38,392 nt of DNA from Armatimonadota bacterium (GTDB lineage: Bacteria; Vulcanimicrobiota; JACPDT01), in contig JACPDT010000279.1 in assembly GCA_016183865.1 (NCBI GenBank), forward strand, positions 1 through 38,392, written 5' to 3'. The position numbers and the translations under genes were made by a program. Numbering within the stretch: position 1 is the stretch's first letter; each line of letters starts with the position of its first letter. Of the stretch, positions 2,001-23,719 are shown in pieces. The notes beneath the pieces are model-generated. The model saw only the letters and a program-made list of their open reading frames with translations. It was not told the origin of the DNA and made no database searches.

Positions 2001-2972
2001 ATGAGTGCGTTAGAGAGGTTCGGGGGATGCGAGCCGTGGGGTCAGTGGCTCAGTCTGAAGGTTTGGGCGCTGGGTCTTGTCCTGATTCTATGGTCTCCCG
2101 CCGCACAGGCCCAGTTGTTCCGGCCTCTTTTCGGGAGTGACGGTTCGCACGTGTCCCTTGAAGGCGAGGATCTTTACGGCATAGCTTGCCATTACAATCT
2201 CTCCGTCGAGCACCTGGCCCTTGCCAACGATATTCTTCCCATCCGAATTCAAATCAGCCCCGGCACTCGAATACTCATCCCGGGGCGGCGAATCCTTCCA
2301 GTGGCGCCTCCGCGAAACGGAATCGTCTTGAATATCCCTGAACGGGGACTCTTTCTTTTCCGCAATCAGCGGATGGTCAGATTCTATCCCATTGCCATAG
2401 GGAGGCCGAATAGCTCGGAGACCCCCGAAGGCAGCTTTCGAGTCACGAGCAAGGCCATAAACCCGACCTGGTTTCCTCCCGAAAAGGTACACTATTGGAA
2501 AGGAGCTGTCCGTCCAGGTTACGAGAATCCCCTTGGAAAGTACTGGATCGGCCTGGGTCCCAGTCGGGGGCTTGGCATACATTCCACAAACCGCCCCATT
2601 TTCATCGGTTCCGCACTGACAAACGGCTGCATAAGACTTTACCCGTGGATGATGGAGGACCTTTTCAGGCAAGTAAGGATCGGAATGACGGTCCGCATCG
2701 AATATGAAACCGCCAAGATCGGATGCGATCCCAGGACAGGGACCTGTTACCTTGCAGCCTTCCCTGATGTCTATGGCCGGGCTGATCCCTGCATTTCCGC
2801 ACAGAGGCTCCTCAAGAAGATCGGCTTGAGCAGGTTCGCGACTTTCGAGGCGTGGAAAGACCTGACAGGCCGATCTCCAGGGCTGGCTCGCCCGATCATC
2901 CTCAAGAGGACCGGCATTTCAGCCGCTGAGCTGGAAGAGCCGGTCCTCGATTCAGAAAAAGGAGGTAGATGA
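2001..2972 (+). CDS. LysM-domain L,D-transpeptidase (YkuD family)
   Basis: Signal peptide ending in AAQAQ. LysM-like YGIACHYNLSVEHLALANDI. YkuD catalytic motif GIHSTN......LTNGCIRLY (His ... Gly-Cys-Ile-Arg). SD AAGGAAAG upstream of the ATG. Confidence 0.9.
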   Translation: MSALERFGGCEPWGQWLSLKVWALGLVLILWSPAAQAQLFRPLFGSDGSHVSLEGEDLYGIACHYNLSVEHLALANDILPIRIQISPGTRILIPGRRILPVAPPRNGIVLNIPERGLFLFRNQRMVRFYPIAIGRPNSSETPEGSFRVTSKAINPTWFPPEKVHYWKGAVRPGYENPLGKYWIGLGPSRGLGIHSTNRPIFIGSALTNGCIRLYPWMMEDLFRQVRIGMTVRIEYETAKIGCDPRTGTCYLAAFPDVYGRADPCISAQRLLKKIGLSRFATFEAWKDLTGRSPGLARPIILKRTGISAAELEEPVLDSEKGGR

Positions 2973-10581: not shown

Positions 10582-11094
10582 TCAGAATGTATCCAATTGA
10601 TGAGAAACATTTCTCATTTTTTGCTCAAGGAGATAGGCGTCTCGGTAAAAGGACAGGCTACCCTCCACGAGGGGCTCGCTCTTGGATTGCGTAAACTCAC
10701 GGATTTGCTCGTGGAGGTTGTGAAGATCCGCGGTTTTCGGCTCCTCCCACGTGATGGGTGTCAGGGCCCGGGTCGGCTGCCTGTGACCATGGATCAACAC
10801 GATTCCCACAGTCACGAGAAGGACGGAAGCCAGAGCCAGGCGCAGCAGAGCCGGCCAGGGAAAGAGCCTGCGTCTTTGTCTCGCTTCTCTTGCGATGGTT
10901 TCGGAGATTCCCTGCGAGGGGCCATCCGCCTCGGGAAGACAGGCCAGCCTTGCATGGATTTCCCTGAATGCCGCCAATTCTTCTTCACAGGATGTGCAGG
11001 AAGATGTGTGGCGGACCAGCTCATCTTTCTTCTCTTCCGGCAGCTCCTCGTACACAAGGAGGACTATTCTTTCTTTCCACTCTTCGCAGCTCAT
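10582..11094 (-). CDS. Anti-sigma factor (zf-HC2 type, single TM)
   Basis: The ATG at 11094 overlaps the sigma-factor stop as ATGA. N-terminus MSCEEW...VRHTSSCTSCEEEL fits the H-x3-C-x2-C zinc motif. One TM helix, LALASVLLVTVGIVLI, is followed by a periplasmic tail. Confidence 0.8.
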   Translation of the reverse strand: MSCEEWKERIVLLVYEELPEEKKDELVRHTSSCTSCEEELAAFREIHARLACLPEADGPSQGISETIAREARQRRRLFPWPALLRLALASVLLVTVGIVLIHGHRQPTRALTPITWEEPKTADLHNLHEQIREFTQSKSEPLVEGSLSFYRDAYLLEQKMRNVSHQLDTF

Positions 11095-11612
11095 ATCGCT
11101 TCCCATTCCTTCAAGATTTTTCGCAGGTTCAAGAGTCCGTAGCGCATGCGCCCCAGGGCAGTGTTGATGGAACATCCGGTGATGCGAGCGATCTCGGAGA
11201 AGGTGAAACCTGCATATTCCGAAAGAAAAATCACAGCCCGCTGTTCCTTCGGAATCCGTTGAATGGCTTCTTCCAGACCTTGCGATTCCGACTTTGCCGC
11301 GGGTTCCGTAACATCCATAAGGCTCAATACCCCTCTGTCCTTCTTGTTCTTCCTGACCGCATCCAGCACGAGGCGATGAGCCACCCGAAAAAGGAGATGA
11401 CTGAATTTCTCCTGAGGTTTGTACTGCGGCAGAAAACGTATGATGCGCAAAAACGTTTCCTGAAACAGCTCCTCAGCCAGTCGCCGGTCCTGCACGCACT
11501 TCACGAGCCAGGAGAACAGTCTTCTCCGATACCGTTGGTATAAATCGTCAAAGGCCCTGTCATCGCCGGAGAGATAATTCTGGATCAGGATGTCATCATC
11601 ATTGGAAGACAC
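11091..11612 (-). CDS. ECF-type RNA polymerase sigma-70 factor
   Basis: Region 2 (FDDLYQRYRRRLFSWL...AEELFQETFLRI) and region 4 (IPKEQRAVIFLSEYAGFTFSEIARITGCSINTALGRMRYG). GTG start with AAGGAG 6 nt upstream. Confidence 0.9.
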   Translation of the reverse strand: MSSNDDDILIQNYLSGDDRAFDDLYQRYRRRLFSWLVKCVQDRRLAEELFQETFLRIIRFLPQYKPQEKFSHLLFRVAHRLVLDAVRKNKKDRGVLSLMDVTEPAAKSESQGLEEAIQRIPKEQRAVIFLSEYAGFTFSEIARITGCSINTALGRMRYGLLNLRKILKEWEAI

Positions 11613-11678: not shown

Positions 11679-12647
11679 TTACCACCAATATTTTTCGAAA
11701 AAGCCCTTTGCGATGCGCCGCATTTCGTTTCGAAGAGGCTGCGGCTCCAGGACTTCCGCTTCATCTCCGAATGCCAGAACCCAGGGGAGGAGCTCCTGCC
11801 AGTGATTCACCGTCAGGGTGAGGATGGATGCGCCTTCCTCCTTCGGCTGAACCTCGGCCGCCATCTCCCTCCCGTAGGTCGAGAAACCCCTCCGGGTGAC
11901 CAGCAGGCGAACGCGTTCCCGCTCAGGCTTCGGGAATCCCCAGATGTCGTGAAGGGCTGAACGGTAGTTGAATTCGACAGGCGGGGTGAAAAGGTCTTCC
12001 GTCTCGAGGGTGTCGCAGACCGCCTTCCCCTTGATGGTCCGTATCCTGTCAAGCTGCGGAACATAGGCAACCAGGCTGGTTTCGCCCCGGTGAAAGACAA
12101 GGAGCAAGGGATGGCAGGTCTTCCACACCAGTTGAGAGGTGGATTCACCTGTGGTGAGGAGCTTTACCGTCTTATGTGAGGAAATCCCCGTTTCCAGCCT
12201 CTCATAGGACTCCTGAGAGAAAGGTCCGTCCATGGAGGCCAGCAGTTGCTGCGAGACCTCCTTGGGACCGGAATCCCATAAGGTCTCGAAAGAAACGGGG
12301 AATGCCGACTTGAGCTTCTTTACCAGGTTCTCATAGCTTGACTTGTATGGGGCCGTTCGCTTCTTTCCCCTCGCCCTGGAGGGGGCTTCCACGATCTCCG
12401 CCAGGAGTAGAACCTCCTGAAAGCTGAGTCTCAGCGGACTTATGGGAAGCTCCGGGAGAATCCGGTAAGTGCCGTCGAAATAGATGGGTACATGGGAAAG
12501 GGACAAACGACGTAAGTCGTGGAAGATGGTCTCCCTGCTTTCGCCGGTTTCCTGCGCAAGGGACTCCAGGCGCCATTGCTTTCCTTCGCAGGGAAAGGTC
12601 AGAAGCTCCAGAATTCTTAACCTGCGCCGTCGGGAACTCATGCTCAC
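11679..12647 (-). CDS. HTH-WYL-domain transcriptional regulator with C-terminal extension (WYL-1)
   Basis: N-terminal wHTH (RRLRILELL...LAQETGESRETIFHDLRRL). WYL-like core (HPLLLVFHRGETSLVAYVPQLDRIRTIKGKAV). C-terminal LPWVLAFGDEAEVLEPQPLRNEM, typical of the WCX tail of PafBC-like regulators. Confidence 0.85.
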   Translation of the reverse strand: MSMSSRRRRLRILELLTFPCEGKQWRLESLAQETGESRETIFHDLRRLSLSHVPIYFDGTYRILPELPISPLRLSFQEVLLLAEIVEAPSRARGKKRTAPYKSSYENLVKKLKSAFPVSFETLWDSGPKEVSQQLLASMDGPFSQESYERLETGISSHKTVKLLTTGESTSQLVWKTCHPLLLVFHRGETSLVAYVPQLDRIRTIKGKAVCDTLETEDLFTPPVEFNYRSALHDIWGFPKPERERVRLLVTRRGFSTYGREMAAEVQPKEEGASILTLTVNHWQELLPWVLAFGDEAEVLEPQPLRNEMRRIAKGFFEKYWW

Positions 12648-12700: not shown

Positions 12701-14341
12701 ATGGATTATTTGATCTTCAAGGCTCTCGCGGAAAACCTCCAGTCCGCCTGGGCGGGGGCGCGGATCGTGAGAGTCACATCTTCCGGACCAAAGAGCTTCT
12801 CTTTCCAGCTCCTCTCGGGAAAGAACAGGAGGACCCTGCTTTTTTCTCTTGAGGGGCTTATGCCCAGATTTCATCTTCTTTCGGAGGCGCCACGAGGCAC
12901 GGAGATCGCTCCTCCTTTTCTCCTCTTGTGCAGGAAATTCATCGAGGGCGCCAGGCTCAAGCTGTGTGAGGTTTCCCCTCTCCAGCGGGTCCTCGTTGTG
13001 ACCCTGGAGACAAGGGATCTGATCAGGGGGCTTGTGCCGTACAAGCTTGTTTTTGAGGTAATGGGCAAGCAGTCATCCCTTGTGTTGGCAAACTTTGATG
13101 GAAAGATTTTGGGGAGCGTCTTCATCAGGGCGGATGAGCGATTGGAGGCAGGGCGGGATTATCAGGTTCCAGTGCTCTCCGGGGAGCGAAATGTATGGAC
13201 CCGGGACGTGGAGCGTTTCTCCCGCGTCTTGAGAGACCGCCGCGGGGACCTTGCGAAGACTCTGTCCTCGAGTTTTTGGGGAATCTCCAGGACCCACTGG
13301 GATGCTCTCCTTCTTTCGGTTTCAGGATTTCTTTCGCCGGAATTCCTGGATGAGTCGGAGATTCAGGCATTGTGGAGGGAAGTTTCCGGACTTCTCGATC
13401 GTCCCTTTCCAGGGGCCTGGCTTGTCCCCTCGGAGACTCCGGGGGCATGGGAAATAACATTACTTCCCATGCCCGGACGGGAGGGAAGAGTTTTTCCAGA
13501 CATTCACACAGCCCTGGAGGCATGGTTTTCCGAGAGGGACGAGGCGGAGAGGGTCCGGCGTCTTCGTGACAGCCTCTTGCGAGCCCTTTCGCGGACCTCC
13601 GACAGGCTGAACCGCAAATATGAAGCCAGAAAAAAGGAGGAGGAACGCCTTTTCGCAGCGGAGGCCCTCAAGGGGGAGGCCATGGAGCTGATCGCCTCTC
13701 TTTCGGAAATTGATCCGGCTCTCCTCAGGGAGACCTCCGCAAGAGCCCAGGCACTTTTCAAGCAATACAAACGGGCTCGTGCCGTGTCGGGATCGGTGGA
13801 GGCACGGCTCGCGAGCGTCCTACAGGAGATGAAATATGTGGATTCTCTCCGTCACTTTGTGGGCCAGGGGGATGACCGGACCCTTCTGGAAGACATGGAG
13901 GAGGAGCTGCAGGAGCGCGGCTATGTGCCGCGGCCTGGCGGGGGGGCACGTACCAGAGAAAGAAAATCTTCCTTCCGATGTTACGAATCAAAGGACGGGC
14001 ACCGGATCTGCGTAGGGCGAAGCAACAGGGAGAATGAGGCTCTTCTCCATGAATCCACCGGCCCTCGCGATTTGTGGTTCCATACGCGAAACATGCCTGG
14101 AAGTCATGTGATCCTGAAACTTTCCGGCAGAGAGCGCGTGCCGCCCGAGCTGATCGAGCTCTGCGCCAGGATTGCCGCTCATTACAGCAAAGGGAGAGGA
14201 TCTCTGGTGGAGGTGGACTTCACGGAGAGAAAATATGTAAGGAAGCCGAGAGGGTCTCCCCCCGGCTTCGTTCTCTACCACAATGCAAGGACCGTCAGAG
14301 TGTCGTCAGGCGATTTCTCTGCTCATGTGACGACCGTGTAA
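12701..14341 (+). CDS. rqcH: RqcH / NFACT-family ribosome quality-control protein (Rqc2 homologue; FbpA-like)
   Basis: NFACT-N-like N-terminus (..LVFEVMGKQSSLVL..), a central coiled coil, and a C-terminal NFACT-R/DUF814 motif (GHRICVGRSNRENEALL....DLWFHTRNMPGSHVILK). The ATG lies 53 nt from the divergent WYL gene. Confidence 0.85.
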   Translation: MDYLIFKALAENLQSAWAGARIVRVTSSGPKSFSFQLLSGKNRRTLLFSLEGLMPRFHLLSEAPRGTEIAPPFLLLCRKFIEGARLKLCEVSPLQRVLVVTLETRDLIRGLVPYKLVFEVMGKQSSLVLANFDGKILGSVFIRADERLEAGRDYQVPVLSGERNVWTRDVERFSRVLRDRRGDLAKTLSSSFWGISRTHWDALLLSVSGFLSPEFLDESEIQALWREVSGLLDRPFPGAWLVPSETPGAWEITLLPMPGREGRVFPDIHTALEAWFSERDEAERVRRLRDSLLRALSRTSDRLNRKYEARKKEEERLFAAEALKGEAMELIASLSEIDPALLRETSARAQALFKQYKRARAVSGSVEARLASVLQEMKYVDSLRHFVGQGDDRTLLEDMEEELQERGYVPRPGGGARTRERKSSFRCYESKDGHRICVGRSNRENEALLHESTGPRDLWFHTRNMPGSHVILKLSGRERVPPELIELCARIAAHYSKGRGSLVEVDFTERKYVRKPRGSPPGFVLYHNARTVRVSSGDFSAHVTTV

Positions 14342-14961
14342 ACCATTTCCAATTTTCCCACTCGAATCTTGTCCCCTGAATTGAGGGGCTGAGGGGCGCC
14401 CTTGGAAAGCCGCATGTTGTTCACAAAGGTCCCATTGGAAGATCCCAGATCCTCCAGGGCGTACTGGTCGTCCTTCAGAGAGAACTGGGCATGTTTCCTG
14501 GAGATATAGGCATCCTTGTCCTCTTCCGTCAGGTCCACGTCAGGGAAGACTCCGTCTGCAGGGCTTTGGCGGCCGACGAGGACGACCTCCTTCTCCAGGG
14601 GAAATTCCTTGTTCGTTGCCGTAACGACCAGTCTTGCTTTCAGGGAAGGGACGACAGCCCCTTCTCCTCCCCCTTGAGGGGGGAGGCCGGGTGGGGGAGC
14701 GGTCGCCTCCGCCGAAACCGCCGTCGCGACTCCAAGAGCTGCCCCGCAGTCCGAGCAATAGGCTTCCCCTGCCTCGTTTTTCGCGCCGCATGCGCCACAC
14801 TGGACTGTTCCCCCAGTTGCCGCAGGAGGAGGTGGGGGAGGAGGAGGCGGTGCAGCTCCTTCCGTCATCGTAGCTACAGTCCCCGCCGCCAGTTTGGCCC
14901 CGCAATCTTCGCAGTAGGCGGCGCCTTCAATATTATCCGATCCGCAACTCGGGCATTTCAT
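14323..14961 (-). CDS. Double zinc-ribbon + FHA-domain protein
   Basis: Two CxxC..CxxCG ribbons (MKCPSCGSD..CEDCGAKL; CGACGAKN..CSDCGAAL) are separated by a poly-Pro stretch. The C-terminal FHA is VLVGR....D..L.....ISRKHA.F.......LEDLGSSNGTFVN. Its 3' end overlaps rqcH convergently by 19 nt. Confidence 0.9.
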   Translation of the reverse strand: MKCPSCGSDNIEGAAYCEDCGAKLAAGTVATMTEGAAPPPPPPPPPAATGGTVQCGACGAKNEAGEAYCSDCGAALGVATAVSAEATAPPPGLPPQGGGEGAVVPSLKARLVVTATNKEFPLEKEVVLVGRQSPADGVFPDVDLTEEDKDAYISRKHAQFSLKDDQYALEDLGSSNGTFVNNMRLSKGAPQPLNSGDKIRVGKLEMVYTVVT

Positions 14962-14997
14962 ATGGTCTCAGCCTCCTTAGCCTTTATTATAATAAGA

Positions 14998-16284
14998 TCA
15001 GGGTTTCGGATTTTGGATCATTGTCTCATCCAGCAATTGGGTCAATTTTCTAGTGCCGTATTCCAGTTTCTTGGTTCCTGCCGCAGAGGCAGTCCCGCCT
15101 TTTTCGAGCCTTGCCGCTTCTTCCTTGAAGGTATTGGCGAGGTCGGACTGGCCCCGATCCAGCAGAGTCGTCGCGGCGGAGCGCAGCAATTGCGTCGCTT
15201 TGCCGGTTTCCCCGGACTGGACCAATTCCAGGGCCTTGGTTTGCTGCTTGAACACGCTCACAAGATCCACGATATTCATCACTTCACCGTCCACCATGCC
15301 CGCCAGAGCCGCATCGCTCGTATAGTTGACGACTACATCGGCCGAGACCGTGTCTCCCGCCCGTCTTTGGGAGAGGATGTCGTATGCAACCTGCACCTGG
15401 GCGATGCGAAAGGTTCCCGATGGGCGGGATGGAAGGACCAGCTCGCACAGAATGGATTGGGGCTCGTTTTTCTGAAGATCGCTGAGCTTCACGGTCATGG
15501 TTCGGTCCGAAAGAGCCGGCGCCCCCATGTCATTGATCAATGGCTTCACTTTGAAGACCCTTCGCACCTGGATGTCTTTGCTCACTTTGAGCTTGAGCTG
15601 AATATTCTGGACCACAACGGACTGGACCCCTCTCAATTCCTGGGCAAAAATCTGGGGTATGTCTCTCGGGTCATCAATGTAATAAGACTTTCCGCCTGAG
15701 AGCTCAGCGATCCGGATCAGGAGCTTTTCGTTGAAGTCACTGCCGACCCCCATGGTCGAGAAAGAGAGCCCTCTCGATGTTCCGCCTCTTGCCCGATCTA
15801 TGCACTCGTCCTCATGCAGCGTCAAGCCGTCTGTGAGAAGAACCACGTGATTCACCTTGTCCGGCGCGAGGTGTTTCTCCACCTCATCAATGGCGGCGCG
15901 GATACCCCTGTTCATCTCCGTCCCGCCTCCGACGTCCACGTCGTCAATTCTCTGGATCATTCGCTTGACCCCGCCCTTGTCAAAAATTTGCTGGGAGGGG
16001 ATCATGACCCGGGCCCTGTCGGCAAAAGCTATAATGGAAACCAGATCCTCAGGGCGAAGCTGGTCCACGACATACTGGACAGCCTGTTTCACATAATCAA
16101 TTTTTTCCGCCGCATACATGGAGCCGCTCTTGTCCAGAACCAGCGCCATATTCAGGGCAGCTTCGGCGAAGGACGTCTGACCTGAAGGACTGATTTCCAA
16201 AAGCAGATAGACCAGCTTGTTCTCACTGGATACGAGCACATTGCTGTAGCTCAGCCTTGGCGCCAGATTCACTTCCTGTGACAT
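14998..16284 (-). CDS. von Willebrand factor type A (vWA) protein, TerY-like, with ~200-aa C-terminal extension
   Basis: MIDAS residues are intact: LVLDKSGSM (DxSxS), GGGTEM (Thr) and VLLTDGLT (Asp). Confidence 0.9.
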   Translation of the reverse strand: MSQEVNLAPRLSYSNVLVSSENKLVYLLLEISPSGQTSFAEAALNMALVLDKSGSMYAAEKIDYVKQAVQYVVDQLRPEDLVSIIAFADRARVMIPSQQIFDKGGVKRMIQRIDDVDVGGGTEMNRGIRAAIDEVEKHLAPDKVNHVVLLTDGLTLHEDECIDRARGGTSRGLSFSTMGVGSDFNEKLLIRIAELSGGKSYYIDDPRDIPQIFAQELRGVQSVVVQNIQLKLKVSKDIQVRRVFKVKPLINDMGAPALSDRTMTVKLSDLQKNEPQSILCELVLPSRPSGTFRIAQVQVAYDILSQRRAGDTVSADVVVNYTSDAALAGMVDGEVMNIVDLVSVFKQQTKALELVQSGETGKATQLLRSAATTLLDRGQSDLANTFKEEAARLEKGGTASAAGTKKLEYGTRKLTQLLDETMIQNPKP

Positions 16285-16315
16285 GTGGTCTTACCTCCTA
16301 CATTGGTCAATACTG

Positions 16316-18109
16316 CTATCCCTGCTCGCAATGAAGGACAATCACCGTGATGTTGTCATTGCCGCCGCGCTCGTTGGCGATGCGGATCAGCTCGTCGGCG
16401 ATATCGTTCGGTTGTTTCTTCTTTTCGATCACCGAAGCCAGCTCACCTTCTCCCAGGTATTCCCAGAGTCCGTCGGAGCACAGAACCAGCCATGAAGAGG
16501 GGACAGGCTGGAAATCAAAAACATCCACCTCCACTTTCTCACTCGTTCCAATGGCACGGTAGATCAGACTTCTCTGAGGTGAACGAAGGGCCTCCTCCCA
16601 AGTGAGCTGTCCCATTTTCACGAGGCGCGATACCAGGGAATGGTCTTCCGTGAGCTGGCGGGTCTCGCTTCCATGGATCATGTATCCCCTGCTGTCTCCC
16701 ACATGAGCGCCCCAGAAATGGAAACCATTCGTCAGGAGGACCGTCATGGTTGAGCCCATTCCCTTTCGGGCAGGGTCTCCCAGGGAGTATCGGTAAACAG
16801 CAGCGTTGGCGGCTTCCACTGCCTCTCTCAGGCTTTTCCGGACTTCCTGACCGTCCTCGAAGGGGTCTTCATGGGGGACCTCGGGGCCCATCATCCTGCT
16901 CAACAGCTCCGTGACCAGGGTGCGAATTCCCAGATTGCTCGCCTTGTCCCCTTCCGCCTCTCCCCCCATCCCATCGGCGACCACGTAAAGTCTGAGGCGC
17001 CGAAGGTCGGAGCGGACGTTGTAAGCCTTCTCCAGAGATGCAAAAGAGTCCTGATTGACGGAGCGAACCTGACCGATATCGGTTCTCGAAGCAACGGCAA
17101 AGGACAGGGGCTTCTCCAACGGCGGCATTTCGGCGGACGCCGCCGCAGCCGTGACGAGAGCCTCCTCGAATTCCCGGGTATCCTTGAACCTCTTTTGGGG
17201 GTTCTTTTCGACTGCCTTCTGAATACATTTTTCCAGAGAGCGGGAAACATTCAGATTCAGGGAAGCCAGGGACGGGAGGGAGAACAGCCCCTCACGGTTT
17301 GCGGAGACCTTGTAATTGGAAAGCATCTGAAACAGAACCAATCCCAGGCTGTAAATGTCTGAGCGCACATCAACATGACCATCGCCGACTCCGTAAGCCT
17401 CAGGTGCGGAGAAGCCATCCGGCGAAACCCAGCGGCGACGATCGGCCTCTTCGGTTAGACAGGATTCTTCAAAACCTCCGAGACAGGCCTTCCCATCAGG
17501 GGTCAGAAAAATCAGGGAAGGAGCAATGTTCCTGTGGAGAATGTTTCGTTCGTGGAGAACTCGAAGGCCCTGACACAATTGTATGCCGAGTGAGGCGACT
17601 TCTTTCTCGCTTTTGGGGCCCGATGTCTCCAGGATCGTCTTCAGAGTCGGACCTTCCACAAAGCTTGTGACCAGATAGCTTCGGCCGTTGGTGCGGAGAT
17701 AGTCCTCTACCCTGACAAGGTTGGGATGATTCAGGTCTTTGAAGAGGCGATACACTTCCGAGGCTTCCTGCTGCTCTCTCACAAGGACCTTCTTTCCGAG
17801 AGCGCGCGAATTCTCAGCCAGATAGAGGTTGGTGGTCCCTGTTTCCAGCACTTGAACCACCTTGTAGCTCACATCTATGGGTGCCCCTTCTCCCAGGGGA
17901 GGGAGCGCAGAGGGAGGGGGAGGGGACTCCGCCATAGACGCGCCGCAATCCTGGCAATACTCCGTGTTCTGCGGGTTGACCTTTCCGCACTGGCTGCATG
18001 TGACTCCATTCTCCACGGGAGTGGCGAGAGGTGTGCCGCAATGTTCGCAGAATTTCGCATCAAGGAAGTTTTCCTTCCGGCAACTGGTACACTTCATTTT
18101 TTCTCTCAC
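16316..18109 (-). CDS. Double zinc-ribbon - pseudokinase - PP2C Ser/Thr phosphatase fusion
   Basis: N-terminal CxxC..CxxCG x2 followed by a poly-Pro stretch. The kinase-like domain has degenerate catalytic motifs: VLVRE for VAIK, HRNIAPSL for HRDLKPxN, GGFEE for DFG. C-terminal PP2C motifs: RSVNQDSF, VVADGMGGE, GSTMTV, VGDSRGY, CSDGLW, GGNDNITV. Confidence 0.9.
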   Translation of the reverse strand: MREKMKCTSCRKENFLDAKFCEHCGTPLATPVENGVTCSQCGKVNPQNTEYCQDCGASMAESPPPPSALPPLGEGAPIDVSYKVVQVLETGTTNLYLAENSRALGKKVLVREQQEASEVYRLFKDLNHPNLVRVEDYLRTNGRSYLVTSFVEGPTLKTILETSGPKSEKEVASLGIQLCQGLRVLHERNILHRNIAPSLIFLTPDGKACLGGFEESCLTEEADRRRWVSPDGFSAPEAYGVGDGHVDVRSDIYSLGLVLFQMLSNYKVSANREGLFSLPSLASLNLNVSRSLEKCIQKAVEKNPQKRFKDTREFEEALVTAAAASAEMPPLEKPLSFAVASRTDIGQVRSVNQDSFASLEKAYNVRSDLRRLRLYVVADGMGGEAEGDKASNLGIRTLVTELLSRMMGPEVPHEDPFEDGQEVRKSLREAVEAANAAVYRYSLGDPARKGMGSTMTVLLTNGFHFWGAHVGDSRGYMIHGSETRQLTEDHSLVSRLVKMGQLTWEEALRSPQRSLIYRAIGTSEKVEVDVFDFQPVPSSWLVLCSDGLWEYLGEGELASVIEKKKQPNDIADELIRIANERGGNDNITVIVLHCEQG

Positions 18110-18125
18110 CTCACCGCTCTTTTAC

Positions 18126-19463
18126 TCACAACATTCCGAACAGGAGTATCGCCATGCCCACAACCGCCCAGAAGGCGGAGAAAATGCTGGCCCCTGCCAC
18201 GAAGATATTCAAAATGCCCCTTTCTTCCTTCGGACACGTCCAATACATGGAAAGCATCCCCAAAAAGCCGAGAAAACCGGCCAAAGGCACCATGGACAGG
18301 GCGGTCAGGAAGGCGGCGAGCGCGATTCCCCAGGAGGTCAGGTGAGCGATCTTCGACGTAACAAGGATCGGGATCGTTTCCTTATCTCCTTTCCCCGAAA
18401 CGAGGACATTCCCTTTGTGTCGAGCTCCGGGGGGAAGGAGTCGCCCGATCACCCGCACTGTGACCTGTGTGTCCTGGGTGATTCTCTGGGGAGATGCCCT
18501 GAGCCAGGGCTGATCGGTTGCCACATCCAGGACTGCAAGTGAGCCCGCTTTGACTTTCACTTGAAGCTTGCTTACCGGCTGGTCCTGCCGCTCGATTCTC
18601 CCGAAATCCAGGGAATCTTCCAAAACCGTGAAATCTCCGCCCCCCTTTTTTTTCAGGAAGGTGCTCGGCGATGTCTTCGCCGATTCCAGAGCAATCAGCG
18701 ATTGTGTCAACTCTTCCACATTTTGAAAGCGGTTCGCCGGGCTCAATTCCACCGCTCTTGTGATGATCTCCGAGAAACGCGGGGATAGAGCGGGATTCAT
18801 GCTCCTCGGGGGTTTGAATTGAAAAGGCTTGTTTGCAGGGTCCTCCCGGGTGGCCAGATAGTAGAGAGTAGCGCCGAGACTGTAGATGTCGGACCTGGCG
18901 TCGGTCTGTCCGCTTCCGTATTGTTCGGGCGCCGCGAATCCGGGAGTGCCGATGGCAACGGTATCCCTGTTCTTACCCCCAACATAGTGCCTGGCGATGC
19001 CAAAATCTATCAATTTCACCAGCTCACCCCGGGTCACGATGATGTTGTCCGGTTTCAAATCCCTGTATATGATGGGCGGATTCTGGTTGTGGAGGTAAGC
19101 CAGGAGATCGCATATTTGCAGTGCCCACCAGACCAGGCGACGCTCCGAGACCCCTGACGGCTGCGCTTTCAGCACTCCCTCAAGGGTTTCTCCCTCCACA
19201 TATTCCATTACAAGAAAGTCATTTCCTTTCTCAGAGAAAAAATCGGACAAGACAGGGAGGTTAGGATGATTCAGCTTTGCAAGGATCTGAGCCTCCGAAT
19301 TACCCCCTCCGGGCATCTCTTTGACGGCCCACAGGCGACCTTGCAGCTTGGCGTCGTTCGCCAGATAGACGGTGCCCATGCCGCCTTCGGCGAGGGGGCG
19401 CACGATCTCGTACCTCCCCGCCAGGACGGTCCCGGGAGCAAGATGGGCTTGCATGTTGGTCAT
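18126..19463 (-). CDS. Ser/Thr protein kinase (Hanks type) with a beta-rich domain and three C-terminal TM helices
   Basis: GGMGTVYLA, WAVKEM, YRDLKPDNIIV, IDFGIA and GTPGFAAPEQ are all present. The C-terminus carries three hydrophobic helices. I prefer the ATG at 19463 (MTNMQAH..) over the upstream ATG at 19550. Confidence 0.9.
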   Translation of the reverse strand: MTNMQAHLAPGTVLAGRYEIVRPLAEGGMGTVYLANDAKLQGRLWAVKEMPGGGNSEAQILAKLNHPNLPVLSDFFSEKGNDFLVMEYVEGETLEGVLKAQPSGVSERRLVWWALQICDLLAYLHNQNPPIIYRDLKPDNIIVTRGELVKLIDFGIARHYVGGKNRDTVAIGTPGFAAPEQYGSGQTDARSDIYSLGATLYYLATREDPANKPFQFKPPRSMNPALSPRFSEIITRAVELSPANRFQNVEELTQSLIALESAKTSPSTFLKKKGGGDFTVLEDSLDFGRIERQDQPVSKLQVKVKAGSLAVLDVATDQPWLRASPQRITQDTQVTVRVIGRLLPPGARHKGNVLVSGKGDKETIPILVTSKIAHLTSWGIALAAFLTALSMVPLAGFLGFLGMLSMYWTCPKEERGILNIFVAGASIFSAFWAVVGMAILLFGML

Positions 19464-19536
19464 GATGCGAAAACTTCTCCAGAGGCGCCGGTTTTCCTGG
19501 ACAGGACATCTGCAGAAGGGATGGAATTTTCTCATA

Positions 19537-20493
19537 GTGAGAGTTCTCATTACAGGGGCTGCGGGAAATCTGGGAAGTCATCTGGCCAGGCACCTTATGG
19601 GCCGTGTCTCTCTGGACTTTCGCCTGCGATTGATGATACACAAGAAGGACTTGCCTTTCCCCTTGCCCGAGAGTCCCTTTGTAGAATCAGTGAAAGCGGA
19701 TCTGGCTTCTCCCGCCACTTTGGACCCAGCCTGTGAGGGCGTGGATTGCCTGGTCCATTTCGCCGGGGTTCTGTTTGCGCCGAACCCGGAGGCTTTTCTC
19801 CCCACGACGAATACGGTCTATGCAGGAAATCTCGTTGATGCGGCGCTGAGGGCAAGGGTTCGAAGGTTCATTCTCATCAGTTTCCCTCACGTGGAGGGAG
19901 AGACTGCCCCTGGGAGGCTCGCCAACGGGACTCTGGAGGGCAACCCGGTCTCTGTACATGCGCAGACCAGGCTCAAGGCAGAGCAATATCTGTTCAAAGC
20001 CTATCAAGGCGCCGAATTGGAGCCTGTGGCTCTCAGGCCGGGCATGATTTACGGGAAAAACATTCTTATGGTGGATGCGGCGAAGTTCCTGGCTCAAAGC
20101 CGCCTGCTTGCGGTCTGGAAGAAACCGACCTGGATTCATTTGATCTCCATAGACGATTTCCTTGAGTGTGTTCGAGTCGCGATCGAAAAACCCGGCATAT
20201 GGGGGGTTTACAATCTTGGGGATGAAAAGGCCGTGACTCTGCAGCAGTTCCTGGACAAAGCTTCGGAGAGGTGGAGATGCGCAAAACCCGTTAGACTTCC
20301 GGAATGGTGTTTCTATGCGGTTGCATGGCTCTGCGAAACCTTTGCCTCCATCTTCAGGACACGGTCCCCGCTCACAATGGATTTCATCCGAATCGGCATG
20401 GTCTCTTATGCTTCGGACACAAGCCGCATGAAAAGGGAGCTTCTGGAAACCCTGAAATATCCCACCTTGAGTGAAGGGATTCAGATATTGTAG
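19537..20493 (+). CDS. NAD(P)-dependent epimerase/dehydratase (SDR family)
   Basis: The GTG at 19537 gives MRVLITGAAGNLGSHL (Rossmann GxxGxxG). The rest resembles extended SDRs. The tracked ORF from 19372 overlaps the divergent kinase promoter region. Confidence 0.85.
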   Translation: MRVLITGAAGNLGSHLARHLMGRVSLDFRLRLMIHKKDLPFPLPESPFVESVKADLASPATLDPACEGVDCLVHFAGVLFAPNPEAFLPTTNTVYAGNLVDAALRARVRRFILISFPHVEGETAPGRLANGTLEGNPVSVHAQTRLKAEQYLFKAYQGAELEPVALRPGMIYGKNILMVDAAKFLAQSRLLAVWKKPTWIHLISIDDFLECVRVAIEKPGIWGVYNLGDEKAVTLQQFLDKASERWRCAKPVRLPEWCFYAVAWLCETFASIFRTRSPLTMDFIRIGMVSYASDTSRMKRELLETLKYPTLSEGIQIL

Positions 20494-21886: not shown

Positions 21887-23563
21887 TTACACGATCTCCT
21901 TGAGTCGCTCCAGGCCGAAGGCTTCCCCTGCCGCGCTTCTTGCTTCCGTGAGCCCGTCCGTGTAGAGCAATACGAGATCTCCATGTTGGAGGGTCACCCT
22001 TTTCCTTGAATAGTGGACATCATCCAAAATCCCCAGGGCCACGCCCTCGGCATTGAGCAAGGTGAATTCGTTTTCCGCGGGACGGAACAGGAGGCCCGGA
22101 TCGTGTCCTGCACTGCTGAAATCGAGCTCCATCTTTTCCAGATCCACAGTAAGGTAAAAGGTCGTTATGAACCTCTCCGGCGGCGTTTCGGTGATCATGA
22201 AATGGTTGAGCTTTGAAAGTACGATATTCGGCGCATGGTTCTCCATGGCATAGGCTTTCCACGCGTATTTTCCTCTGGCGGAATAAAGGGCGGCCTGACT
22301 GCCCTTTCCCGATACATCTGCCACGGCTATTCCCCAGCGTTTTGGGCCTGTTTGAACCACATCGAAGTAATCGCCGCCTACCTCCTTTGTGGGCACGAAT
22401 TTGTGCGCAAAGTCCAGGCCTGGAAGGGAGAATTCCCTGGGAGGCAAGAGATTCTTTTGAATGATCCCTGCGATGTTGGATTGTCCTTCATATCGTTGCG
22501 CATTTTCGATGCATATGGCCGCGCAGTCCGCCAATTTCGCAAAAAGGGAGACTTCCTCCGGGGGATACCGGCAGCCCGCCTCATCGAAGAGACAAAGGAG
22601 CCCTGAAGCTCTCTTTCCGGTTGCCAGGGGGGCGCACGCCATGGCGCCCAGTCCTTCCCGCTGGATCTTGTGAGCCACGGAGGGGTTGTGGGTTGCGAGA
22701 AGGAGATCGCTCAGGATCAGAGGCCTTCTTGAGGGGAAAGGAGCATCGAAGCACCAATCCTTATAAGAAAAAGAGATCCCTTTCAGAAACTCTGAGGACA
22801 GCCCCCTTGAACTAACAATCCTGAACCGCCTGCAAGAAGGGTCCCACAGGAAAAGGCAACCTTTATTCTTCCCGAAGAGTTTACATGCTTTTCGAACAAG
22901 AAGGGGGAAGATTTGCTCGGAATTCAAGGTGGTGGCGAGTTTCGCCGTAGCCTGGTGCAACAGGCGGAAACGCTCGATCTGATGGGTCAATCGCTCCAGT
23001 TCCGCCGCCTCATGGGGTTCTCTCGCCTCCGACACTTTGTCCCCGGAGGTTCTGAGAGCTTCGCCGTTTCCGCACGCAAAGGCCGTGGCTATGGTTGTCA
23101 GAAGGCGTGTATGGATATCCAATGTCTTTTGAGACATGACCGGAAGGCGGCTGTACAACTTCCATTGGACGGAAATCTCTTTTTCCGGGACACTGATTTT
23201 CCGGCATTGCTTCAAGAACTCTCCTTTTGAGAGGGGAGAAACGAGGACCTGTCCTGCCCACAACAGGGCCTCAAGGCGGCGGCCCTCCGCCAGGATCGGC
23301 GTTACAAAGTGAGAAGTGCCGAAATCACACCTGTATCTGTGTGTTTCGCCGTGGTCCCTGACTTTCTTTACGGTGTGATCCCGCTGCTTTCTACAGGCCG
23401 GCGGGCTCGCGGAAGGGTCGCCTATCCTGCAAACATTCCGGCAGAAGGGGTTTTGAAAGGCTGGAGGACAAAGAAACATCCCATTCGGTCTCATTACCCC
23501 TGACGAGATATTGGTAGAGCGGGAAAAGAATTTCTGAAACCTTTGCCATGCCTGATTTTCCAT
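21887..23563 (-). CDS. PocR - GAF - SpoIIE/RsbU-type (PP2C-like) phosphatase, C-terminally short
   Basis: PocR-like FCRNVC...YRCDFGTSHFVTPILAEGRRLEALLWAGQV. GAF-like middle region. Phosphatase motifs VGGDYFDV, AVADVSGKG, SAGHDP, LYTDGLTEA. It ends at ..LERLKEIV, before the usual terminal DD(I/V)T motif. I prefer the ATG at 23563 (MENQAWQRF). Confidence 0.8.
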   Translation of the reverse strand: MENQAWQRFQKFFSRSTNISSGVMRPNGMFLCPPAFQNPFCRNVCRIGDPSASPPACRKQRDHTVKKVRDHGETHRYRCDFGTSHFVTPILAEGRRLEALLWAGQVLVSPLSKGEFLKQCRKISVPEKEISVQWKLYSRLPVMSQKTLDIHTRLLTTIATAFACGNGEALRTSGDKVSEAREPHEAAELERLTHQIERFRLLHQATAKLATTLNSEQIFPLLVRKACKLFGKNKGCLFLWDPSCRRFRIVSSRGLSSEFLKGISFSYKDWCFDAPFPSRRPLILSDLLLATHNPSVAHKIQREGLGAMACAPLATGKRASGLLCLFDEAGCRYPPEEVSLFAKLADCAAICIENAQRYEGQSNIAGIIQKNLLPPREFSLPGLDFAHKFVPTKEVGGDYFDVVQTGPKRWGIAVADVSGKGSQAALYSARGKYAWKAYAMENHAPNIVLSKLNHFMITETPPERFITTFYLTVDLEKMELDFSSAGHDPGLLFRPAENEFTLLNAEGVALGILDDVHYSRKRVTLQHGDLVLLYTDGLTEARSAAGEAFGLERLKEIV

Positions 23564-23592
23564 GAACCGCCACCCCGCGATCTCTCCCCTGG

Positions 23593-23623
23593 TTGTTAAA
23601 ACTTCACATTTTTGTGTTACAAT
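23593..23623 (+). promoter_or_regulatory. Candidate sigma70-type promoter upstream of corA
   Basis: TTGTTA (23593-23598), 19-nt spacer, TGT-TACAAT (extended -10; hexamer 23618-23623). The palindrome CCGGT-ATAC-ACCGG (23624-23637) follows. The spacer is longer than optimal. Confidence 0.3.
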
Positions 23624-23719
23624 CCGGTATACACCGGCATGAAATATCATACTGAAAGAATATGAAAATGTCAAGAAGGCATTTCGAATTGCGGTCTACA
23701 AAAGGAAGAGCCGAAAAGG

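Follow-up and report, generated by a model that had tools for sequence, protein, structure and literature searches.

The stretch of DNA analysed here, contig JACPDT010000279.1 of an Armatimonadota bacterium (assembly GCA_016183865.1; 38,392 nucleotides, hereafter the window), carries on its minus strand an operon of four genes encoding a Hanks-type Ser/Thr kinase, a PP2C phosphatase fused to a dead kinase-like domain, a protein with a von Willebrand factor A (vWA) domain, and a protein that joins zinc ribbons to a forkhead-associated (FHA) domain. It seems most likely that these products form a phospho-switch, as writer, eraser, hub and reader, respectively, and we put at roughly 0.7 the probability that the cassette is a bacterial equivalent of the ArnA/ArnB phosphothreonine switch of archaea in which writer and eraser are part of the same operon. 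In Sulfolobus acidocaldarius, the zinc finger of ArnA docks on ArnB at its beta-sandwich and helix bundle to give a loose complex, the kinase ArnC phosphorylates threonines of the C-terminal helices sequentially so that the FHA domain binds and the complex becomes tight, and a phosphatase reverses this tight state (PMC6509490, PMC12852372). We found no literature in which the bacterial cassette is described as ArnAB-like.

Layout of the operon

The four open reading frames (ORFs) span positions 14323-19550 of the window in the ORF list, all on the minus strand, and are separated by gaps of 16, 31 and 36 nucleotides in the order kinase, PP2C fusion, vWA gene, FHA gene. GGAGG-type ribosome-binding sites lie upstream of the vWA and FHA genes, and a scan for terminator-like sites on the minus strand between the four genes, which is weak evidence, found none. 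The G+C fraction of the operon (0.556-0.580) is similar to that of the remaining window. An earlier note on this DNA, made from the sequence alone, had described four same-strand genes 16-36 nucleotides apart, encoding an active-looking Hanks kinase, a zinc-ribbon/pseudokinase/PP2C fusion, a vWA protein with an intact MIDAS (metal ion-dependent adhesion site) and a zinc-ribbon/FHA protein. This description was borne out by the measured gaps, by the motifs reported below for each protein, and by a Pfam search of the four ORFs, as the note had suggested, which recovered Pkinase; DZR, Pkinase and PP2C; VWA; and DZR and FHA families, respectively. The four genes are:

18126..19463, minus strand: writer, a Hanks-type Ser/Thr kinase of 445 aa (Pfam, NCBIfam, AlphaFold)
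16316..18109, minus strand: eraser, a fusion of zinc ribbons, a dead kinase-like domain and PP2C, of 597 aa (Pfam, NCBIfam)
14998..16284, minus strand: hub, a vWA protein of ArnB type, of 428 aa (Pfam, AlphaFold, Foldseek)
14323..14961, minus strand: reader, a zinc-ribbon/FHA protein of ArnA/FraH type, of 212 aa (Pfam, phmmer)

The vWA hub

The hub matches the Pfam VWA family (E 8e-19), and its MIDAS residues, D51/S53/S55, T122 and D152, do not vary among 66 homologues. An AlphaFold model built with 66 sequences, with a pLDDT (predicted local distance difference test) score of 91.8 and a predicted template-modelling (pTM) score of 0.86, divides the protein into N-terminal strands, the vWA domain (residues 43-221), a beta-sandwich (223-322), a helix bundle (333-394) and two tail helices (401-422). 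On comparison of this model with the PDB by Foldseek, the first match was 4FX5, an actinobacterial vWA protein (template-modelling score 0.78), followed by ArnB in the ArnAB complex 8S05 (0.66/0.73) and then by the ArnB paralogue 5A8J; inter-alpha-inhibitor heavy chain, anthrax toxin receptor 2 and Sec23/24 were found among the lower matches. When PDB sequences were searched with the hub profile, ArnB (8S05_A) was the second-best match (E 1e-20), over residues 45-233, that is, the vWA domain only. The parts of the hub on which the argument draws are:

~15622-16158, minus strand: vWA domain with MIDAS (Pfam, AlphaFold)
~15103-15288, minus strand: helix bundle (AlphaFold)
15040..15078, minus strand: tail motif G403-T-K-K-L-x-Y-x-T411-R-K-L-T415 (conservation in 66 homologues)

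Conservation in the hub is highest in the tail. Across the 66 homologues, which come from several phyla, G403, K405, L407, Y409, T411, R412, L414 and T415 are invariant and T404, K406 and K413 nearly so; further conserved threonines (T349, T364 and T372) lie in the helix bundle. More distant hubs carry tandem basic repeats of the form K-T-x-x-(L/I/M) at the same position: three copies of KTQxL in Binatia and Methylomirabilota, two of KTIKL in Chloroflexia, two of KTVKM in Tolypothrix, and KTISL, KTLKI and KTQTL in Deinococcus. FHA domains select on the residue at position +3 from the phosphothreonine, often Leu or Ile, and the T-x-x-L sites of the tail, like the tandem T-x-x-L/I/M sites elsewhere, are therefore plausible candidates for phospho-acceptors that would become FHA docking sites once phosphorylated.

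The reader and the zinc-ribbon heads

The reader matches Pfam DZR (3.7e-10) and FHA (2.4e-18), and its FHA domain, which retains the GR, SxxH and NG motifs for phosphothreonine binding, lies nearest to the FhaB, TagH and OdhI models of NCBIfam. Compared with PDB sequences by phmmer, it is collinear with ArnA (5A8I, 8S05_C), ribbon first and FHA domain second, with residues 2-183 aligning to 4-175 (E 1.4e-3). The matches obtained in a homologue search with the reader bore no name beyond 'FHA domain-containing', and that search does not directly show orthology of the reader to the cyanobacterial protein FraH, discussed below.

The heads of reader and eraser each contain two CxxC...CxxCG ribbons and are collinear homologues, with a local alignment score of 160 compared with 38 ± 8 for shuffled sequences. 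The earlier note had proposed such a common head and had pictured it as two ribbons followed by poly-proline; the homology holds, but the order does not hold for the reader, in which a run of nine prolines sits between the two ribbons and a second proline-rich stretch follows. The ribbon is found on reader and eraser in the window and on kinase and reader in Deinococcus and Tolypothrix, and this appearance on different components in different lineages supports the idea that it acts as a docking tag.

Synteny and distribution

Synteny was sampled in 30 loci fetched from other genomes, in which the orthologous vWA gene was recognized by a match of the C-terminal half below 1e-15. Its co-directional neighbours included an FHA gene in 27 of the 30 loci, a kinase gene in 25, a PP2C gene in 24 and all three in 21, several of the missing neighbours being due to contig ends. 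Counts of this kind show that the gene grouping is not due to chance, and the neighbourhood search with the vWA protein as query, which the earlier note had recommended, found its four families to be syntenic. A DZR/FHA protein directly adjoins the vWA gene in 25/30 loci; the zinc-ribbon/FHA gene is the most constant partner of the vWA gene, and the vWA–FHA pair is the invariant core of the cassette.

The cassette is present in at least eight bacterial phyla, among others in genomes labelled Eremiobacterota, Chloroflexota, Nitrospirota, Methylomirabilota and Binatia and in metagenome-assembled genomes (MAGs) labelled Deltaproteobacteria, with more distant versions in Armatimonadota, Deinococcus and cyanobacteria. 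Homologues of the hub are 55-65% identical in MAGs labelled Eremiobacterota, Vulcanimicrobiota or Xenobia and approximately 40% identical in Nitrospirota and Anaerolineales, and a search of 1.84 billion proteins with the C-terminal half of the hub gave 565 representative clusters with a limit of E <= 1e-3, and 204 when the limit was E <= 1e-10. The genome to which the window belongs (4.4 Mb, 96% complete) is the sole member of its class in the genome collection searched. Within the phylum the vWA gene occurs in 55/201 genomes and, among the genomes listed, is all-or-none by family and always present in one copy; in one sister class it is a single-copy gene in 42/44 genomes, in all 24 high-quality genomes and in all 13 genera, the two genomes without it being 65% and 78% complete. 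This all-or-none, single-copy pattern is that of a core gene with vertical inheritance and not that of a patchy defence island. The downstream flank is shared by two Eremiobacterota genomes and consists of the housekeeping genes EF-P, ApbA and an ABC transporter.

Several variants of the cassette were seen. Many Eremiobacterota loci encode an additional, second protein with an FHA domain at its end. In Nitrospirota and related MAGs (loci L002, L003, L013, L014, L022, L031 and L109), a 750-790-aa FHA-vWA-FHA protein is encoded between the zinc-ribbon/FHA gene and the kinase gene, and in L002 and L003 a gene for a T2SSE/MshEN-type secretion ATPase lies directly upstream of the PP2C gene. A mobilizable plasmid of Tolypothrix sp. 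PCC 7712 (L103, 2709-13259) carries three vWA genes, followed by genes for an FHA protein, for a PP2C with a weak trace of a kinase-like domain and for a kinase-TPR protein, showing that the cassette family is not exclusively chromosomal. The genome of the window itself encodes a second, diverged vWA hub on another contig (C61 in L107; 2523-3860, minus strand; 445 aa, 31% identity, with the tail ...ASKKMITKRLTTQ...), followed by an FHA-only protein of 127 aa that has no zinc ribbon (2050-2433, minus strand). No kinase or PP2C gene was found on this 5.8-kb contig, and the second vWA/FHA pair may be served by the enzymes of the window operon.

Relatives with experimental data

The operon DRA0331-0334 of Deinococcus is a distant homologue of the window operon, with matches for the vWA protein (DRA0331, E 3e-26 over 410 aa), the kinase (7e-29) and the PP2C (4e-27). 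The same four families are brought together in one operon, including a zinc-ribbon/FHA reader and a PP2C with a long N-terminal extension, whereas the Deinococcus kinase bears a zinc ribbon, the pseudokinase is degenerate and the gene order is not the same. A 2026 preprint on D. radiodurans (bioRxiv 10.64898/2026.01.23.701218) reports that the PP2C is active and Mn-dependent, that FHA protein and phosphatase are antagonistic in their action on kinases, several of which are affected, that the DRA0332 kinase has three C-terminal transmembrane helices and that DRA0333 is an orthologue of FraH; a region of DRA0334 is named there a kinase-interacting (KI-)FHA domain. In our alignments, however, this 'KI-FHA' region of DRA0334 (L104, 5879-7729) corresponds to the C-lobe of the window pseudokinase (LTAPE, GVYLLGALLYRWLTG), and Pfam gave no match to an FHA domain in it; the region looks like a degenerate pseudokinase.

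In Anabaena, FraH, which starts with a CxxC ribbon, co-fractionates and co-purifies with the 'hypothetical' protein Alr4359, an interaction validated by yeast two-hybrid analysis; phosphorylation of Alr4359 was found at T362 and T410, and the co-purifying proteins include a kinase and a phosphatase (PMC9035410). The primers given in that paper encode the N-terminus MKVNLQPVLN and the C-terminus KTVLQDTPPK of Alr4359. A search of the genomes behind four of the loci yielded a 411-aa Microcoleus protein (L112, 1489-2724, minus strand) that starts MKVSLLPVLN and ends KKTRIASKTILK, so that the two have N-termini that are nearly identical and a similar KT(V/I)L ending. The Microcoleus gene adjoins clpP, alr4359 lies near all4357/all4358, and the Microcoleus protein aligns end to end with the window hub (28% identity over 418 aa, E 8e-46). 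From the Microcoleus protein, the primer-derived termini and the clpP synteny, we infer that Alr4359 is a hub of ArnB type and that FraH and Alr4359 would form a bacterial ArnA–ArnB pair. The cyanobacterial arrangement differs from that of the window in that hub and reader genes lie apart, with the hub gene beside clpP, and the vWA proteins of the Deinococcus and cyanobacterial relatives are only 24-28% identical to that of the window. Neither the Deinococcus preprint nor the Anabaena paper recognizes an ArnB-type hub.

The kinase

The open frame of the kinase extends over 18126-19550, and translation from the ATG at 19463, a start consistent with the alignment of seven orthologues, gives the 445-aa protein. 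It matches Pfam Pkinase (4.5e-39) and a PknB-type model of NCBIfam (181 bits), the PknB/Stk1 models being nearest, and the sequence and its alignments retain the motifs AVKE, YRDLKPDN, DFG and APE. The AlphaFold model (pLDDT 79) places the kinase domain at residues 1-263, strands at 278-371 and helices at 377-389, 395-409 and 412-444, which corresponds to the following parts:

~18675-19463, minus strand: kinase domain (Pfam/AlphaFold)
~18351-18632, minus strand: beta-sandwich (AlphaFold)
~18132-18335, minus strand: hydrophobic helical tail (AlphaFold, hydropathy)

The earlier note had assigned three C-terminal transmembrane helices to the kinase. The hydrophobic tail is there, but the count is less certain, as the beta-sandwich is followed by two hydrophobic stretches (hydropathy maxima in the long ORF at residues 406-436 and 445-474), which the AlphaFold model renders as three helices; two to three predicted membrane segments is a safe statement. 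A word-based homologue search with the tail returned only the query itself; conservation of the tail was visible by phmmer in the fetched loci and on reading the orthologue sequences.

The PP2C fusion

The eraser starts at either the GTG at 18109 or the ATG at 18097 and consists of three parts:

~17930-18097, minus strand: two zinc ribbons and a proline-rich linker (Pfam DZR/Zn_Ribbon_1)
~17105-17887, minus strand: catalytically dead kinase-like domain (Pfam Pkinase 3.2e-23)
~16331-17083, minus strand: active-looking PP2C domain (Pfam PP2C 7.9e-14)

The PP2C domain scores 230.8 bits against the NCBIfam Stp1/IreP model, for which the cut-off is 230, and its NQD, DGMGG, GDSR, SDGL and NDNIT motifs are intact. 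The kinase-like domain keeps the APE motif and the C-lobe and has lost the beta3 (VAIK) Lys, the catalytic Asp of HRD, the Mg-binding Asn and the Asp of DFG, the catalytic motifs being replaced by VLVRE, HRNIAPSL and GGFEE. The fusion was detected in six loci, and the identical losses are found in all aligned orthologous fusions, which come from Eremiobacterota (four genomes), Binatia (one) and Methylomirabilota (one). Since the losses are common to the fusions of six other genomes, the domain is a conserved pseudokinase and not the product of recent decay. Besides the window, Eremiobacterota, Binatia and Methylomirabilota have this fusion of dead kinase and PP2C, and a degenerate form of it is probably present in Deinococcus and Tolypothrix. 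This conserved pseudokinase–PP2C eraser and the common zinc-ribbon heads are the distinctive features of the locus.

The proposed switch

The cassette resembles ArnA–ArnB in gene adjacency, domain content and control. In both cases a zinc-ribbon/FHA protein is encoded next to a protein composed of a vWA domain with intact MIDAS, a split beta-sandwich and a helix bundle; the C-terminal helices of the hub are rich in threonine; and a Hanks kinase and a Ser/Thr phosphatase, which control ArnAB, have counterparts encoded in the window operon. Among the differences, the reader in the window has two ribbons with poly-proline spacers, the hub has the extra invariant tail GTKKLxYxTRKLT, and ArnAB is archaeal and controls the archaellum, whereas the cassette is bacterial and no archaellum is present.

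By analogy with ArnAB, the kinase, probably anchored in the membrane, would respond to a membrane or envelope cue and phosphorylate threonines of the helix bundle and tail of the hub (T349, T364, T372, T404, T411 and T415). The reader, already held weakly on the hub by its zinc ribbon, would clamp the pT-x-x-L sites with its FHA domain once the tail was phosphorylated, converting the complex from loose to tight. The PP2C would undo the phosphorylation, and its homologous zinc-ribbon head might compete with the reader for one docking site on the hub. The dead kinase domain may attach to the active kinase or else to the hub's substrate tail. The output would be altered binding by the hub, through its MIDAS face or through a released zinc ribbon; the functional hints on this output are limited to control of the archaellum in Sulfolobus and membrane reorganization in Anabaena.

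Several observations weigh against equating the cassette with ArnA/ArnB. The sequence similarity between the hub and ArnB is confined to the vWA domain, the likeness of the C-terminal part being structural only, and at E <= 0.01 neither ArnB_C nor any other Pfam family beyond the vWA models was matched by the hub, which we therefore call ArnA/ArnB-like rather than a member of the family by sequence. Moreover, the three-domain ArnB fold is widespread (YfbK, Sec23/24), and the fold alone is no proof of a phospho-switch. The match between the reader and ArnA is weak, at E 1.4e-3. The phosphatase of ArnAB is a PP2A and its kinases are encoded elsewhere, whereas in the window the enzymes are encoded in the operon and a PP2C is fused to the dead kinase. 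The adjacency of kinase and PP2C genes is not universal either, as loci L005 and L110 have one or both missing nearby. The identification of Alr4359 with the Microcoleus protein is based on primer-derived termini and synteny rather than on the full sequence, and phosphorylation, FHA binding and ribbon docking are proposed for the window proteins by analogy and from their sequences.

A more elaborate version of the switch would be a self-contained toggle on a Sec23/24-like (ArnB-type) hub, in which the heads of reader and eraser compete for a single site on the hub, the dead kinase tethers the phosphatase to the active kinase or to the substrate tail and the output is remodelling of the membrane or envelope, which would make it a widespread, phosphorylation-gated bacterial relative of the COPII inner-coat core. 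Such an output is suggested by the part of FraH–Alr4359 in thylakoid reorganization in cyanobacteria; taken as a whole, we regard this elaboration as speculative and unlikely to be correct in full.

Other kinase–phosphatase systems

The best matches of the enzymes to PknB/Stk1 and Stp1 models, and of the FHA domain to FhaB and TagH, would also be expected from an ordinary Ser/Thr cluster for growth or envelope functions (PknB/PstP/FhaA–FhaB, or the type VI PpkA/PppA/Fha1), in which the vWA protein is just one of many substrates, and the action of the homologous Deinococcus FHA protein and PP2C on several kinases (bioRxiv 10.64898/2026.01.23.701218) points the same way. Yet there are no rodA/pbpA neighbours and no PASTA domains, the invariant pair is vWA–FHA and not kinase–phosphatase, and the part of the hub under the strongest conservation is the tail, which together make such a cluster an improbable explanation. 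Its type VI variant was rejected: no type VI sheath gene was found in the 96%-complete genome, while the Escherichia coli control was positive.

We give an equally small chance to a core-encoded module for threat sensing or conflict signalling that, like the actinobacterial Esr system, combines vWA, kinase, phosphatase and FHA proteins and still serves defence. Esr unites a vWA protein, a kinase/phosphatase pair and an FHA output protein, often with a zinc finger (PMC13622651), which is threonine-phosphorylated on epibiont attack (PMC13622651), and in actinobacterial conflict systems Kaur et al. (2020) report a theme that joins a kinase with a zinc ribbon or transmembrane segment, a PP2C and a stand-alone vWA protein (PMC7159879). 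However, the MoxR ATPase and variable surface sensor required by Esr and by the vWA-MoxR systems occur neither in the window nor in the related loci, and the proteins of the cassette are strongly conserved across a phylum, at the 55-65% identity given above, rather than diversifying. Both PpkA–PppA–Fha1 and Esr resemble the cassette in that a Hanks kinase serves as writer, a PP2C as eraser and an FHA protein as reader, with the vWA domain on PpkA itself or on a separate protein; they differ in that the genome of the window has no type VI genes and the cassette no MoxR or propeller sensor, and in that its vWA protein is a separate, cytoplasmic hub of ArnB type and not a periplasmic sensor domain.

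Comparison with TerY-P

The earlier note had read the locus as a TerY-P-like operon extended by an FHA reader, with reference to the analysis of Ter systems by Anantharaman, Iyer and Aravind (2012). TerY-P is defined by a TerY-like vWA protein, a PP2C and a kinase with a C-terminal zinc ribbon (PMC11090510; PMC4978471). According to PMC11090510, the defence version of Gao et al. has a kinase with an OB fold in place of the zinc ribbon, and TerY-P-like modules act as stand-alone antiphage systems (Gao et al., 2020), in agreement with the statement in the earlier note that TerY-P was among the antiphage candidates validated in that study. The cassette and TerY-P share the joint encoding of a vWA protein, a PP2C and a Ser/Thr kinase, presumably as a phosphorylation switch acting on a MIDAS protein.

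As the archetype for comparison we used the triad of plasmid R478 (TerY1/2/3, PP2C and kinase; L106, 11238-17465), which comprises two single-domain TerY proteins of 212 aa, TerY3 with an added TerY_C domain, a PP2C of PP2C_2 type (156 bits) and a divergent kinase annotated as 'lipopolysaccharide kinase InaA family'. In BLASTP comparisons, neither the kinase (E 0.21) nor the PP2C (E 0.12) of the window showed significant similarity to its R478 counterpart, and the vWA protein matched TerY1/2/3 in the MIDAS region only (59-125 aa, E 3e-6 to 3e-4). TerY is a single-domain vWA protein of 212 aa and the window hub a three-domain protein of 428 aa; the R478 phosphatase is of PP2C_2 type and that of the window of Stp1/IreP (Stp1/PstP) type; and a TerY-P kinase ends in a zinc ribbon or OB fold (PMC11090510), whereas the window kinase ends in a beta-sandwich and hydrophobic helices. 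No Pfam match to TerY_C (PF15616) was obtained on the four window proteins, or to an OB fold on the kinase; in R478, TerY_C sits on the vWA protein TerY3. A search for TerY_C in the window's own genome found none, and the control genomes were silent as well. IncHI2 TerY plasmids were absent from the vWA and PP2C matches at the E-value limits used.

With PADLOC, the window vWA protein had no match, the PP2C matched PDC-M21C alone, and the kinase domains matched the mad6 and PD-T4-6 models, which are generic Hanks-kinase matches. PADLOC-DB 2.0.0 gave no match for the TerY proteins and PP2C of R478 either, and weak generic matches for its kinase, so that a negative PADLOC result cannot exclude TerY-P. 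TerY-P occurs patchily, in Ter, McrBC/CoCoNuT or secretion islands, whereas the window vWA gene belongs, in single copy, to the core genome of a whole class and is surrounded by housekeeping or unrelated genes. In none of the loci examined do nuclease, Ter, McrBC or mobile-element genes adjoin the cassette, and the operon does not differ in G+C from its surroundings.

What stands of the TerY-P reading is therefore the presence of a vWA protein, a PP2C and a Hanks-type kinase in one operon; membership does not stand, given the dissimilar enzymes and the core distribution, and the resemblance, as far as these comparisons go, is one of shared domain families. The four features that the earlier note had listed as departures from the triad were all seen, but they belong to the family and are not peculiar to this locus: the zinc-ribbon/FHA gene is the most regular companion of the vWA gene, the phosphatase/dead-kinase fusion recurs in other lineages, zinc-ribbon heads recur on different components across lineages, and a kinase ending in three transmembrane helices has likewise been reported for DRA0332. 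In spite of the three shared families, the validated defence role of TerY-P-like modules (PMC11090510) and the two generic PADLOC matches, a TerY-P-type antiphage system extended by an FHA reader, which would sense infection and relay it through vWA phosphorylation to abortive infection or growth arrest, is the least probable explanation and a very remote one.

Neighbouring genes

The FHA gene and the convergent rqcH-like NFACT gene (12701-14341, plus strand) overlap at their 3' ends by 19 nucleotides (14323-14341). Just downstream of the operon, domains read by eye from the translations suggest an extracytoplasmic function sigma factor paired with a zinc-finger anti-sigma factor (10582-11612, minus strand), adjoined by a regulator gene (11679-12647, minus strand) that is divergent from the NFACT gene. 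On the upstream side, approximately 2.3 kb away, a 595-aa protein (21887-23674) has a C-terminal phosphatase domain (GGDYFD ... ADVSGKG ... LYTDGLTEA) of RsbU/SpoIIE type, a type to which the operon PP2C is unrelated.

Significance

The analysis connects three literatures, on ArnAB in Sulfolobus, on FraH and the 'hypothetical' Alr4359 in Anabaena and on DRA0331-0334 in Deinococcus; we found no cross-citation among their papers that treats these as the same system. For vWA + PP2C + kinase neighbourhoods in general, domain content alone is insufficient for a TerY-P defence label, and the comparison made here guards against such mis-annotation. The solved archaeal ArnA/ArnB switch supplies a concrete, testable model for an uncharacterized cassette of many bacterial phyla, from which it is predicted that the phosphosites lie in the invariant T-x-x-L tail of the hub, that the heads of reader and eraser compete, and that the dead kinase domain would serve as a targeting device for the phosphatase.

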